Source of the DNA: Escherichia coli
Lineage (GTDB): Bacteria; Pseudomonadota; Gammaproteobacteria; Enterobacterales; Enterobacteriaceae
NCBI RefSeq assembly: GCF_022846255.1
Contig: NZ_AP025682.1
Direction: 5' to 3' (one strand)
DNA length: 64,000 nt
Shown in pieces: positions 1 to 9,000 of the stretch. How positions within the stretch are numbered: position 1 is the first letter of the stretch; every line of letters begins with the position of its first letter. Position numbers: made by a program.

Positions 1-3000
1 TGTTTTAGAGATGTAAAGGAATAGCATGGCAAAAATCCGAAGTATAGCGACTTATTTGCGCATTAATGCCGTCGTAAACGGTGACCAACGAATCAACTGT
101 TAAAGAAAAGTAAATTCAGCTAAGTTGATTGCTTACAAAAGATGAAATTCAGAGGCGGTAGAATGTCGCGAAAAGATGGGGTGTTGGCGCTACTGGTAGT
201 GGTTGTATGGGGGCTAAATTTTGTGGTCATCAAAGTGGGGCTTCATAACATGCCACCGCTGATGCTGGCCGGTTTGCGCTTTATGCTGGTCGCTTTCCCG
301 GCCATCTTTTTTGTCGCACGACCGAAAGTACCACTGAATTTGCTGCTGGGGTATGGATTAACCATCAGTTTTGCGCAGTTTGCCTTTCTGTTCTGCGCCA
401 TTAACTTTGGTATGCCTGCTGGACTGGCTTCGCTGGTGTTACAGGCACAGGCGTTTTTTACTATCGTGCTTGGCGCGTTTACTTTCGGTGAGCGACTGCA
501 TGGCAAACAATTGGCGGGGATCGCCTTAGCGATTTTTGGCGTACTGGTGTTAATCGAAGATAGTCTGAACGGTCAGCATGTGGCGATGCTCGGCTTTATG
601 TTGACCCTGGCGGCAGCATTTAGTTGGGCGTGTGGCAACATCTTCAATAAAAAGATCATGTCGCACGCAACGCGTCCGGCGGTGATGTCGCTGGTAATCT
701 GGAGCGCATTAATCCCAATCATTCCCTTCTTTGTTGCCTCGCTGATTCTCGATGGTTCCGCAACCATGATTCACAGTCTGGTTACTATCGATATGACCAC
801 CATCTTGTCTCTGATGTATCTGGCATTTGTGGCGACAATCGTTGGTTATGGGATCTGGGGAACACTGCTTGGACGCTATGAAACCTGGCGGGTTGCACCG
901 TTATCGTTACTGGTGCCTGTAGTTGGACTGGCAAGTGCGGCACTATTGTTGGATGAACGCTTAACGGGTCTGCAATTTTTCGGTGCGGTGCTCATTATGA
1001 CCGGGCTGTATATCAATGTATTTGGCTTGCGGTGGCGTAAAGCGGTAAAGGTCAGAGGCTAAACCATACGCACAGAATGTGATGCCAGCACTCTGTGCGT
1101 CTGCTTTTATCGCGGGAAAAAGTACTTTACCTGGAACTCGAAAATATTGCTGTAAAGTAACGAATAATCCAGCGGAATAGAGTTACTATCCACAGCCTGG
1201 GTCTGAATTTTAAGTATGGGATCCCGTGGGCTGATCCGTAAAATACTGGCGATTTCTGGGGTAGGAAAAGTCGGGGAGAAAGTTTCAAAGGTGCCAATGA
1301 TTTTGATCCCGCATTCGTTCTCAATATACGAAAATTTGGATTTTTGCATATGCGATACGGTTAAATCAGGAAAACGTGCCACTGACATCCACGTTTCTTC
1401 TAATTGTGCTGCATTATCCTCAATGAATCGCAGTCTCTTTATGTAATAAACCTGCTCACCAGTCACTAAATTCAGCTCAGTCGCAATAGTAGGAGAAGCA
1501 TCCTGCACTTCAAATTTCATAATCTGACTTCCTGCCTCTTTGCCGCTTTTATGTGCAATTTCACTGAAACTGTTCATGTGATCAATGTGTGCAACAAAAT
1601 TCTTTTTTTGAATGTATGTTCCTGAACCATGCTTTCTGTGAATAATTCCTTCGCCTTCCAGCAGGGATAATGCCTTACGCAGGGTATTACGCGAAACATT
1701 ATAACGAACAGCGAGTTCCGCTTCTGACGGCAACAAATCACCAACATGCCATGAATTGCCATTGATCTCGGATTTAAGTAAGCGGGCAATCTTTTGAAAA
1801 ATCACTTTTGCACCTTTTAAGAGCCATTGAAAACAAGGAGTTGAGACCTGATTAGTTTATCGTATGGCCGAGTCGTTTAATTATCACCCTGTTGTTGAAC
1901 AACTTTATTGCTGTATTACTGTGATCAATGTACCAGGACGTGTAGCTACTGTGGGATATGATATTTACACAATGTAGTCTGTTATATACCAGTAAGGAAA
2001 AATATGAAAAAGATATTGTTAGTTTGCGCTGCGGGCATGTCAACCAGTATGCTGGTTAAACGTATGATTGATCATGCTACCGCTATTTCACTTGAAGTTA
2101 ATATTTCCGCATTGGCGATTGCAGAGGCTAAAGGGAAAATTAAAAATAACGAAGTTGACGTTGTTTTACTTGGTCCGCAAGTTCGCTTTCAGAAACCAGA
2201 GATTGAAGCCGTTGCACAGGGGAAAATGCCTGTAGCCGTTATCGAGATGAAAGACTATGGCACAATGAACGGACAGGCAGTTCTTGAATTTGCGATGAAA
2301 CTACTGCAAGAGTAAGAATCTAATATTATTAAACTATTACCTGAACTAACTTTTCACACATCATAAAATGGATATGGCATACATGCTTTATTGGGATGTA
2401 TAAATATCCAGGACAACAGGTATAAAAAAATGGGATTAATGGCATCATTCGAACGTGGAATGGAACGTTTTCTTGTTCCAGTTGCTATCAAGTTAAACTC
2501 ACAAAAACATGTTGCAGCGGTGAGAGATGGATTCGTTTTTACGTTTCCAATTATCATGGCAAGCTCATTAATTATATTAATTAACTTTGCCATATTATCG
2601 CCCGACGGTTTTATTGCCGGATTACTGCATCTGAACAGCATTTTCCCCAACCTTGAAAAAGCACAAGCTATTTTTACTCCGGTAATGAATGGTTCTGTAA
2701 ATATCATGTCAATTATGATTGCTTTCCTGGTCGCCAGGAATGTGGCGATTAGCTATGAGCAAGATGATCTTTTATGCGGATTAACGGCAATAGGAGCATT
2801 TTTTATTGTTTATACCCCATACCAGATGATAGATGGGCAGGCATTCCTGACGACCAAATATCTCGGCGCGCAGGGGTTGTTTGTTGCTGTTATCGTTGCA
2901 TTGATCACCAGTGAAATATTTTGTCGCTTAGCTCGAAACCCCAAAATCACCATAACGATGCCGGCAGCTGTACCTCCTGCGGTAGCGCGTTCATTTAAAG

Positions 3001-6000: not shown

Positions 6001-9000
6001 ATCGACGGACTTAATTATCCCAATCATGAAGCAATTGATTTTTATCATCGCTATAAAACAGATATTCAGTTATTTGCCGGGATGGGATTCAAATGCTTTC
6101 GAACTTCCATTGCCTGGACACGAATCTTTCCGCAAGGTGACGAACAGGAGCCGAATGAAGAGGGTTTACAATTTTATGATGATCTCTTCGATGAATGCCT
6201 GAAGCAGGGAATGGAACCTGTGGTGACGCTTTCGCATTTTGAGATGCCTTATCATCTGGTGACAAAATATGGTGGCTGGCGAAACCGTAAACTGATCGAC
6301 TTTTTTATCCACTTCGCATCAACGGTCTTCACGCGCTATAAAGAAAAAGTAAAGTACTGGATGACGTTTAACGAAATCAATAATCAGGTGAATTTCAGCG
6401 AAAGCCTGTGTCCATTTACTAATTCCGGTATCTTGTATTCGCCAGAGGAAGATCTCAATGAGCGCGAACAAATAATGTACCAGGCGGTACATTATGAGTT
6501 AGTTGCCAGTGCCCTGGCGGTACAGACTGGAAAACTGATCAATCCTGAATTTAATATCGGCTGTATGATTGCTATGTGCCCCATCTATCCTCTGACGTGT
6601 GCACCCAACGATATGATGATGGCCACGAAAGCGATGCATCGTCGTTACTGGTTTACTGATGTTCATGCTCGTGGATATTATCCGCAACATATGCTGAATT
6701 ACTTTGCAAGGAAAGGATTCAACCTCGATATCACACCAGATGATAACGCGATTCTTGCCAGAGGTTGTGTCGACTTTATCGGCTTTAGCTACTACATGTC
6801 TTTTACGACGCAATTTTCGCCAGATAATCCGCAACTGGATTATGTTGAACCACGAGATTTGGTCAGCAACCCTTATATCGATACATCCGAATGGGGATGG
6901 CAAATTGATCCGGCAGGGCTACGTTATTCACTCAACTGGTTCTGGGATCATTTCCAATTGCCGCTGTTTATTGTCGAAAATGGATTTGGTGCGGTTGACC
7001 AGAGACAAGCTGACGGCACGGTGAACGATCACTATCGCATTGATTACTTTTCCTCCCATATTCGGGAAATGAAAAAAGCCGTAGTTGAAGATGGTGTTGA
7101 CTTAATTGGCTACACCCCGTGGGGTTGCATTGACCTGGTTTCTGCCGGAACAGGAGAAATGAAAAAACGCTACGGAATGATTTATGTCGATAAAGACAAC
7201 GAAGGGAAGGGAACGCTGGAACGGATACGTAAAGCATCGTTTTACTGGTATCGGGATCTCATCGCCAACAATGGCGAAAATATATGAGACTTCAGGAAGA
7301 TATTACGGAAATGTCAGGCTCTGTGATCAGAGCCTGACAATAACTACATAGCGTGTTGATTGTAATAGGGCACGCCGAGCGCATCCGACTTATCACTGCC
7401 AGTACCCATGTGATTTAAATCAAACGGTGGTTGTTCCTGCGATGTGGGAACAACCACGACATTGCCACAGGAAGTAACAACCGGCTGCGTGGTTTGTTCC
7501 GCAACGCCCTGCGCAGAAAAGAGAATAAGCGCAGTTGCTATTGCGGATAAAAGTGGTTTCATGATTGCCTCAGTGACGTTGTCACGTTATCAACTAGTTG
7601 TTGTAATGATTTAATGGATGTAAAAAACGCGATTCACCTTGCATATTGGTCATCCGGTATTTATGCGGCGGAACATCAAAGTAATTTTTGAAGGTTCGGG
7701 TCAGAGTTTGTTGGGACTCGAAGCCATATCGTTCTGCCAGATAGAGTATCGGCTCGTTACTTTCCTTCAGCTTTTGCGCGATTTCCGTCATCTTACGGCT
7801 ACGGATGTATTGACCTAATGAATGACCGGTTTCTTTTTTAAACATCCGTTGCAGGTGCCATTTGGAGTAACCCGAACGCTCTGACACTTTCTCCAGTGAC
7901 AGTGGCGATTCCAGGTTGTCCTCGATCCAGTCCAAAATGCTATGAATGGTAATAGCGTCAGTATTGCGTCTGGACATCGTCATACCTCTTTTTTCGTTTA
8001 CGGCAGGACTTTCTTAAGCAAATGCTCAAGTGTTGCCACTTCGTCCGCCGTCAGGTTTTTTGTTAATTCTTGATGCAGGTCCTGGCCAACTAATTGATGG
8101 CATTGTTCACATATTGCCGCGCCGCTGGTGGTAAGTTTTACCAGTACGCCGCGCTTATCATTCGGGTTCGGCAACCTTTCCACCCAGCCTTTACAGACCA
8201 GGCGATCCAGCATACGGGTCAGTGCCCCCAGGTCGACCGACAACACTTTTTTCAGTTCAACCGGAGTAATACACGCCGCGCAGCGGATAGAGCAGAGCAC
8301 CTTAAACTGTGCCGCGGTAATATCCAGCGGAGACAGATACTCGTTAAGCAGGCGATCTTTCTTCTGATTAACCATATGGATTAAGCGACCCAATGGAATA
8401 ATTTCATTGAACAGATCGCTGGTACTTTTCACATTAGTTGCCCTGGCAAGTAATTAGTTGCAGGGGATAATATTGCCCAGGCAAGTATAAGTCAAATGAA
8501 TGAATTGACCGATGCCACGTTTTGCTAAATCGGTTCAAGTTTTGGTCAATGCGATGCAAGGTTAGCTAAAGAGTGACACTTTATCCTTGTTTACCCCTTA
8601 TACTTTTCGCTGATAAACCAGATACACAGGATAACAACCACCAATGTTAGATTTGTTTAAAGCAATAGGCCTGGGGCTGGTGGTGTTACTGCCGTTAGCT
8701 AACCCATTAACAACTGTCGCGTTATTTCTTGGCCTGGCAGGCAACATGAACAGTGCCGAACGTAATCGTCAGTCGTTGATGGCCTCGGTGTACGTATTTG
8801 CCATCATGATGGTGGCGTATTACGCCGGGCAACTGGTGATGGATACATTTGGCATTTCGATTCCCGGTCTGCGAATTGCAGGCGGCTTAATCGTCGCGTT
8901 TATCGGTTTTCGGATGCTCTTTCCGCAACAGAAAGCGATTGATTCACCGGAAGCGAAAAGCAAGTCGGAAGAGCTGGAAGATGAACCCAGTGCCAATATT

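Follow-up and report, generated by a model that had tools for sequence, protein, structure and literature searches.

A 64,000-nucleotide stretch of Escherichia coli DNA (RefSeq assembly GCF_022846255.1, contig NZ_AP025682.1; hereafter the window, in whose positions all coordinates are given unless stated otherwise) carries between eamA and marB a variable segment of 6,291 bp, delimited to 1053..7343 by junction alignment to K-12. Open reading frames (ORFs), listed for window 1-10,000, show six genes in the segment: a GntR-type regulator gene on the minus strand and, divergent from it on the plus strand, genes for a IIB, a IIC and a IIA component of the phosphotransferase system (PTS), a sugar porin and a GH1 6-phospho-beta-glucosidase. 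This is almost certainly the known E. coli bgc locus, bgcR divergent from bgcE-bgcF-bgcI-bgcH-bgcA, present as an old insertion in which bgcH has been inactivated in this strain. The feature is an already described accessory catabolic operon, and the additions to the known system are the bgcH pseudogene, a prevalence of ~47%, the polarity of the insertion as read from outgroups, and its age.

Protein families were assigned by NCBIfam and Pfam profile matches. BgcR (1107..1805, minus strand, 232 aa) combines a GntR winged helix-turn-helix domain (PF00392, E 3.1e-19) with a UTRA domain (PF07702, E 7.4e-30), a pairing that places it in the HutC subfamily. The three PTS proteins belong to the lactose/cellobiose family. 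BgcE (enzyme IIB; 2004..2315, plus strand) was identified by profile match and carries Cys8 within the motif CAAGMSTS (VCAAGMSTS), which aligns with CSAGMSTS of ChbB. BgcF (enzyme IIC; 2430..3752, plus strand, 440 aa, alternative ORF start 2391) scores 335 bits against TIGR00410, for which the curated cutoff is 236, and is thereby a member of the Lac family (TC 4.A.3). BgcI (enzyme IIA; 3780..4091, plus strand, alternative ORF start 3777) has an HAQDH motif (HAQDHLM) that aligns with ChbA. Scores of the IIB and IIA models fall under their equivalog cutoffs, yet the E-values are 1e-24 to 1e-30. The fifth gene, bgcH (4146..5824, plus strand), encodes a LamB-family sugar porin (PF02264, Sugarporin_N) of 557 aa in its intact form; the intact allele of strain H22 matches PF02264 over model positions 1-378 (E 4.5e-80) and has in addition the N-terminal coiled-coil extension of Sugarporin_N, and a PDB sequence search with BgcH returned nothing at E 1e-5. 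BgcA (5848..7287, plus strand, 479 aa, alternative ORF start 5818) scores 1035 bits against NF007154, well over the cutoff of 624, and has the two catalytic glutamates of GH1 enzymes, E176 in TFNEI and E377 in IVENG. Its closest solved structures are phospho-beta-glucosidases (3pn8/4f66, 807 bits; E. coli BglA, 2xhy, 678 bits). Thus a divergent GntR-type regulator adjoins a IIB-IIC-IIA-porin-GH1 module, and active-site motifs are intact in five of the six products. The sequence-only reading had named a GntR/HutC regulator, IIB, IIC and IIA proteins, a LamB-family porin and a GH1 enzyme, and the profiles recover all of these, the PTS, porin and GH1 families included; what that reading missed is that the reading frame of the porin is broken.

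The gene order, which had been likened to the bgcR/bgcEFIHA locus, is indeed that of strain CFT073, where the same six genes stand in the same order and at the same position between marB and eamA. BgcR, BgcE, BgcF and BgcI are 100% identical between the two strains, BgcA differs at one residue and a repaired BgcH at four. The CFT073 bgcH is intact, whereas that of the window is frameshifted by a third copy of the pentamer GACCT. For the CFT073 genes RefSeq shows new locus tags only; they probably correspond to c1955-c1960. The c1955-c1960 block is a six-gene 'PTS system, cellobiose specific' set that varies among Escherichia genomes (PMC2831201). BgcR has been described, with reference to Neelakanta et al. 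2009, as a positive GntR-type regulator of the bgc operon, and mutants in which the operon is activated reportedly grow on cellobiose, arbutin and salicin (PMC3585215); bgc is counted among the four cryptic beta-glucoside operons of E. coli (PMC4488073). PMC2646131 makes no mention of bgc. RefSeq labels for the genes are generic ('PTS sugar transporter subunit', 'carbohydrate porin'), and the bgc names are useful for annotation. The primary description, by Neelakanta, Sankar and Schnetz (2009; AEM 75:2284), reportedly concerns the bgc of strain i484; its abstract is said to assign IIB to BgcE, IIC to BgcF, IIA to BgcI, the porin to BgcH and the glucosidase to BgcA, and to report that the operon depends on CRP, that bgc* mutations act as promoter-up changes, and that the locus is prevalent in phylogroup B2 and also found in E. 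albertii.

On the left the segment is flanked by eamA, the gene of an O-acetylserine/cysteine exporter (163..1062, plus strand, alternative start 142 in the ORF listing), and on the right by marB (7344..7562, minus strand), after which come marA, marR and marC. K-12 MG1655 has none of the six genes at this site; its marB ends at 1,620,207 and its eamA starts at 1,620,238, leaving a gap of 30 bp. Colinearity of the window with K-12 extends to ...GCGGTAAAGGT (window 1052), within the last three codons of eamA, and is restored exactly at the stop codon of marB (CTACAT, window 7344). Between these junction points K-12 has 40 bp (GGGAAGTTAATAAGCCCCGAGATGTCGGGGCCAGAACAAA) and the window 6,291 bp; the event is a replacement of 40 bp of K-12-type sequence rather than a pure addition. 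The last three codons of eamA (from 1053) are part of the variable segment, and the exporter ends in ...KVRG* here as against ...KVGS* in K-12. An estimate of ~6.3 kb between the two genes, running from 1063 to 7343, had been made from the sequence alone, and it agrees with the alignment to within 10 bp on the left and exactly on the right. The accompanying impression that the segment is AT-richer than its surroundings also proved correct, with 42.6% GC in the segment compared with 48.3% in the left flank and 49.6% in the right. GC at third codon positions (GC3) is 0.39-0.45 in the segment versus 0.52-0.58 for eamA, marA, marR, marC and ydeA, with marB, at 0.47, as the exception. The GC content of the segment is among the lowest 5% of 6.3-kb windows across the 64 kb.

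The pseudogene bgcH is split into ORFs 4146-4703 and 4826-5824, with the LamB domain spread across two frames. Relative to strain H22, whose island is 99.9% identical, five extra bases are present at 4691-4695; H22 reads TTTGACCTGACCTTAAAT where the window reads TTTGACCTGACCTGACCTTAAAT. The number of GACCT copies is raised from two to three (lesion 4691..4706, plus strand, by alignment to intact alleles), the frame shifts, and the altered frame runs F-D-L-T to a TGA stop at 4701-4703. The set of structural genes is thus not intact, and no full-length LamB domain exists in a single frame. Removal of one GACCT unit restores a 557-aa protein that differs from the H22 porin at two residues. A 101-bp probe over the lesion matched 2,515 complete genomes with the locus, none above 95.0%, the value that a 5-bp gap gives; the allele is absent from them, GACCT standing twice in each complete genome examined; among 5,426 complete genomes the best match of a 12-kb stretch of the window is 99.7%, and the lineage with the lesion is unrepresented there. 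Exact look-up of the truncated 185-aa product returned six contigs, four of which were inspected (read sets DRR322657, DRR102846, ERR2349758 and DRR322658). All four have the triple GACCT, and over lengths of up to 10.7 kb they match the window at 99.97-100% identity. Because the same allele is found in four independent read-set assemblies, it is a genuine allele of a lineage and not a sequencing error. A real bgcH null allele bears on any prediction of a beta-glucoside-use phenotype for this lineage.

Other disrupted forms of the porin gene are on record. A strain of E. albertii (CP117628.1) has a separate 1-bp deletion at bgcH nucleotide 1451 relative to the E. albertii type strain; its bgcH occupies locus coordinates 12962-14640, and no marA gene was called in that locus. 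Shortened forms of both the porin and BgcA occur among Shigella database entries. Counting the GACCT expansion, the E. albertii deletion and the truncated Shigella forms as the porin knock-outs so far, the porin may be the bgc component that is most easily dispensed with, or the one most strongly selected against.

A divergent control region (1806..2003) separates bgcR from bgcE, and an alignment of this spacer covered 12 loci of 11 genera, namely two alleles of E. coli together with E. albertii, Citrobacter, Salmonella, Kluyvera, Raoultella, Klebsiella, Enterobacter, Cedecea, Ewingella and Erwinia. The columns are 64% identical on average, but CTGTGA is invariant in all 12 loci (TGTGA at 1920-1924). 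The TGTGA is the left half of a CRP-like site, TGTGA-N6-TACCA (1920-1935, centre 1927.5), and a candidate -10 element, TATGAT at 1957-1962, would place that site at about -41.5. Such a putative class II arrangement at the bgcE promoter fits the CRP dependence that has been reported. An inverted repeat, GTT(C/T)A-N16-TGAAC (1875-1900), hardly varies among the 12 loci and might, as a guess, be the BgcR site. A convincing palindromic operator of the HutC type was sought in 1806-2003 and none was found.

The pathway that these proteins would form can be drawn from their families and from the published description of the operon, its observed part here being family membership, the motifs and the null allele of the porin. 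Cellobiose, arbutin, salicin and similar beta-glucosides would cross the outer membrane through the BgcH porin and would then be imported and phosphorylated by the Lac-family PTS permease, with the phosphoryl group passing from HPr to the histidine of BgcI, from there to Cys8 of BgcE, and finally to the sugar as it crosses BgcF. BgcA is predicted to split the resulting 6-phospho-beta-glucoside into glucose-6-phosphate and an aglycone or glucose. Transcription from the bgcR-bgcE intergenic region would require both CRP with cyclic AMP and BgcR, a reported activator. In the lineage of the window the GACCT expansion has inactivated bgcH, so that entry across the outer membrane would have to rely on other porins; polarity may in addition lower the expression of bgcA.

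It is possible, although we think it rather doubtful, that this strain has a silent or wholly non-functional locus, the frameshift marking the onset of decay, Rho-dependent polarity over ~1.1 kb of untranslated bgcH abolishing bgcA expression, and no beta-glucoside being used by this route. Translation stops at 4701-4703, 1.1 kb before bgcA. A dead locus would also sit well with the listing of the operon as cryptic (PMC4488073), with the independent bgcH frameshift of the E. albertii strain and with the truncated porin and BgcA forms of Shigella. The other five ORFs are nevertheless intact, four of them specifying proteins identical to those of CFT073, and the lesion amounts to one recent slip of the repeat, to which no other damage has been added. 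The bgc substrates, at 272-342 Da, are moreover small enough to pass general porins.

A second alternative concerns the substrate, and we regard it as unlikely: the natural sugar might instead be a different plant- or host-derived disaccharide with a beta linkage, for instance gentiobiose or a mannobiose-type product as for GmuR-regulated systems. In favour of this, wild-type strains reportedly need promoter mutations before they grow on the tested sugars. BgcR resembles GmuR and BguR, which regulate glucomannan and beta-glucoside systems (PMC3585215), and this points the same way, as does the greater similarity of BgcA to Gram-positive phospho-beta-glucosidases of unassigned specificity (3pn8) than to BglA. 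On the other hand, the activated mutants are reported (PMC3585215) to grow on precisely these tested sugars, cellobiose, arbutin and salicin, and BgcA lies far above the 6-phospho-beta-glucosidase cutoff. Less probable again is the idea that the eamA/marB site holds an old presence/absence polymorphism maintained at intermediate frequency, and that recurrent, independent knock-outs of the porin alone reflect selection against displaying BgcH on the cell surface, where a phage or a colicin might use it as receptor, with the cytoplasmic pathway kept; we offer it as speculation.

The full segment is present in 2,563 of 5,426 complete E. coli genomes (47%), almost always as a single chromosomal copy, and falls into two sequence types, one at least 99% identical to the window (446 genomes) and the other ~97% identical (2,118 genomes). 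A probe for the empty K-12 junction is fully covered in 2,481 genomes (46%), with listed identities of 98.6-100%. The site is essentially biallelic, with one uniform empty allele. Carriers include Shiga toxin-producing E. coli, isolates from dogs, chickens and pigs, environmental isolates, and E. coli W. The earlier description of bgc as a strain-variable module of extraintestinal strains is therefore right as to variability, K-12 being without it, and too narrow as to host strains; with about half of complete genomes carrying it, the locus is far more widespread than that description implies. E. coli W (NC_017635.1, 1731184-1747235) has an intact bgcR-bgcEFIHA between eamA and marB, which is at odds with the W genome paper, where the safe strains are credited with bgl alone (PMC3032704). 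Rare secondary deletions also occur: strain 2017.17.01CC has lost the DNA between a point within eamA and the final ~80 bp of bgcA and retains a truncated eamA, and in strain MB31 marB adjoins ydeE and eamA is missing. Compared with H22, the eamA flank of the window (1-1052) is just 98.5% identical, as against the 99.9% of the island, a contrast that suggests a recombination breakpoint near the left junction.

The polarity and age of the insertion can be read directly from the junctions of outgroups. Citrobacter koseri has 32 bp and E. fergusonii 136 bp between eamA and marB, with no bgc genes in either; the E. fergusonii spacer (locus 8895-9030) aligns with that of K-12 or C. koseri only at its ends. 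The spacers of K-12 and C. koseri can be aligned with each other, and a GCCCCG..CGGGGC stem is common to both. Since the outgroup sites are empty and K-12 and C. koseri share this stem, the empty allele is ancestral and the bgc allele is the insertion or replacement, as the word 'inserted' in the sequence-only reading had presupposed. E. albertii has the arrangement ydeE-eamA-bgcR-bgcEFI-(bgcH)-bgcA-marB, and its sequences at the two junctions are those of the window. Identity between the E. albertii island and that of the window is 82.1%, and the corresponding values for the surrounding genes are 84.6% for eamA, 82.6% for marB, 84.5% for marC and 90.3% for marR; among E. coli strains, divergence is 2.5% between the two types of island and 1.7-2.8% between their flanks. 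Island and flanks have thus diverged together, and because E. albertii shares the junctions, the insertion predates the split between E. coli and E. albertii and is not recent. On this history, an old insertion would have replaced the 40-bp eamA/marB spacer before the two species separated, and in present-day E. coli the derived bgc allele would exist side by side with the ancestral empty one, each about as common as the other.

The reverse polarity, in which the module was ancestral at the site and was lost by deletion from K-12-type strains, is very improbable and has been largely refuted. It can draw on the E. albertii module at the identical site and the equal divergence of island and flanks, and secondary deletions do happen at the locus, as in 2017.17.01CC; yet eamA directly adjoins marB in both C. 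koseri and E. fergusonii, a single junction, not an assortment of scars, is found throughout the 2,481 empty genomes, and the 40 bp of K-12 hold a hairpin homologous to that of C. koseri, which a deletion could not recreate. Recent acquisition as a mobile genomic island, which low GC and GC3 and the occurrence of the module at unrelated chromosomal sites in Citrobacter sp. On2M and Salmonella enterica subsp. diarizonae might suggest, is refuted in so far as 'recent' is concerned and can be practically discounted, as atypical GC is the only mark of a mobile island that the segment bears, the divergence of the island equals that of its flanks both within E. coli and against E. albertii, and neither flanking direct or terminal inverted repeats, nor a tRNA, nor an integrase, transposase or insertion sequence ORF was found in or around it. 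The six-gene module at those unrelated sites, together with rearranged versions in which bgcA lies upstream and inverted (Klebsiella, Enterobacter, Cedecea, Buttiauxella and Ewingella), points to earlier horizontal transfer among Enterobacteriaceae and their relatives.

The old insertion into the eamA/marB spacer displaced the probable terminator hairpin that the two genes share, along with the final three codons of eamA. Each end of the segment now has a hairpin of its own. At the left end, folding places one between the convergent eamA and bgcR genes (1068..1100), followed by CTGCTTTTAT on the plus strand, and this is probably a shared terminator of the two. At the right end, between the convergent bgcA and marB genes, the perfect hairpin that had been noticed at 7312..7339 stands up to folding against shuffled sequences: it has a 12-bp stem and a 4-nt loop, its energy is -22.6 kcal/mol (z = -4.7), and none of 200 shuffles folds as well. 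A generic promoter and terminator scan gave counts not above those of shuffles and listed neither this hairpin nor a bgcE promoter; the hairpin went unlisted because it has no T-run on the bgcA strand. An Rfam scan of window 1-12,000 returned no RNA family. Both hairpins are kept in E. albertii, whereas in Citrobacter sp. On2M and S. enterica subsp. diarizonae bgcA is followed by other hairpins and the one at 7312-7339 is absent; the two therefore belong to the Escherichia junctions. Most likely, they replace the single bidirectional GCCCCG..CGGGGC terminator of the empty site.

Several points weigh against reading the segment as the bgc locus described in the literature, inserted long ago and working as outlined above. 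The right half of the putative CRP site (TACCA) is weak, and the generic scan found no promoter above shuffled expectation. PMC3585215 gives BgcF as the IIA and BgcI as the IIC, in conflict with the gene order and with the assignments reported for the primary abstract. Public database names for the exact proteins are all generic, none of them Bgc. As published, the operon is cryptic in the wild type, and whether it is active here would be doubtful even without the porin lesion. Finally, the ancestral empty allele persists in E. coli with flanks that are near-identical to those of the bgc allele up to the junction.

Elsewhere in the window, ~11 kb (19808-30858) are without a counterpart in CFT073. 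NCBIfam equivalog matches identify lsrGFBDCA (19748-25546, minus strand), lsrR (25795-26748) and lsrK (26827-28419) in this part, with a fragment of an ECSE_1600-family autotransporter (28503-29276) after lsrK. As these lsr genes are kept here and missing in CFT073, the strain is B2-like at bgc and yet has the uptake operon for autoinducer 2 (AI-2). Another strain-variable spot lies near hipA, where ~450 bp (32637-33087) stand against ~2.5 kb in CFT073 that hold an SDR oxidoreductase and fragments of LysR and acetylxylan-esterase genes. A long AT-rich block at 32000-55000 (43-46% GC, with a minimum of 40% at 42-45 kb) goes lower in GC than the bgc segment and is colinear with CFT073 up to 47.4 kb.

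As a described accessory carbohydrate system, bgc has small significance beyond its correct annotation. Set against its K-12 paralogues it is a mosaic of types, with no counterpart of BglF, BglG, ChbF or ChbR. The K-12 chbBCARFG operon (N,N'-diacetylchitobiose/cellobiose) belongs to the same PTS family and likewise has separate IIB, IIC and IIA proteins in which the phosphorylation motifs are kept, with identities of 44% for BgcE and ChbB, 37% for BgcF and ChbC, and 48% for BgcI and ChbA. However, chb relies on a GH4 hydrolase (ChbF) and an AraC-type regulator (ChbR) and has no porin in the operon, whereas bgc has a GH1 enzyme, a GntR/HutC regulator and its own porin. The aryl-beta-glucoside operon bglGFBH of K-12 resembles bgc in its porin and hydrolase: BgcH is 52% identical to BglH, and BgcA is 50% identical to BglB, as well as 60.5% to BglA and 49% to AscB. 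Both bgl and bgc are cryptic beta-glucoside systems, but the bgl permease is a fused EIIBCA of the glucose family (BglF) working with the antiterminator BglG, and bgc has no match to either.

The combination of a GntR/HutC regulator, a split Lac-family enzyme II and a GH1 phospho-beta-glucosidase is found likewise in gmuBACDREFG of Bacillus subtilis and in bgu of Streptococcus pneumoniae (PMC3585215), and the best solved relatives of BgcA are phospho-beta-glucosidases of the streptococcal type. Unlike bgc, these Gram-positive systems have no porin, there being no outer membrane to cross, and their regulators BguR and GmuR are repressors, whereas BgcR is a reported activator.

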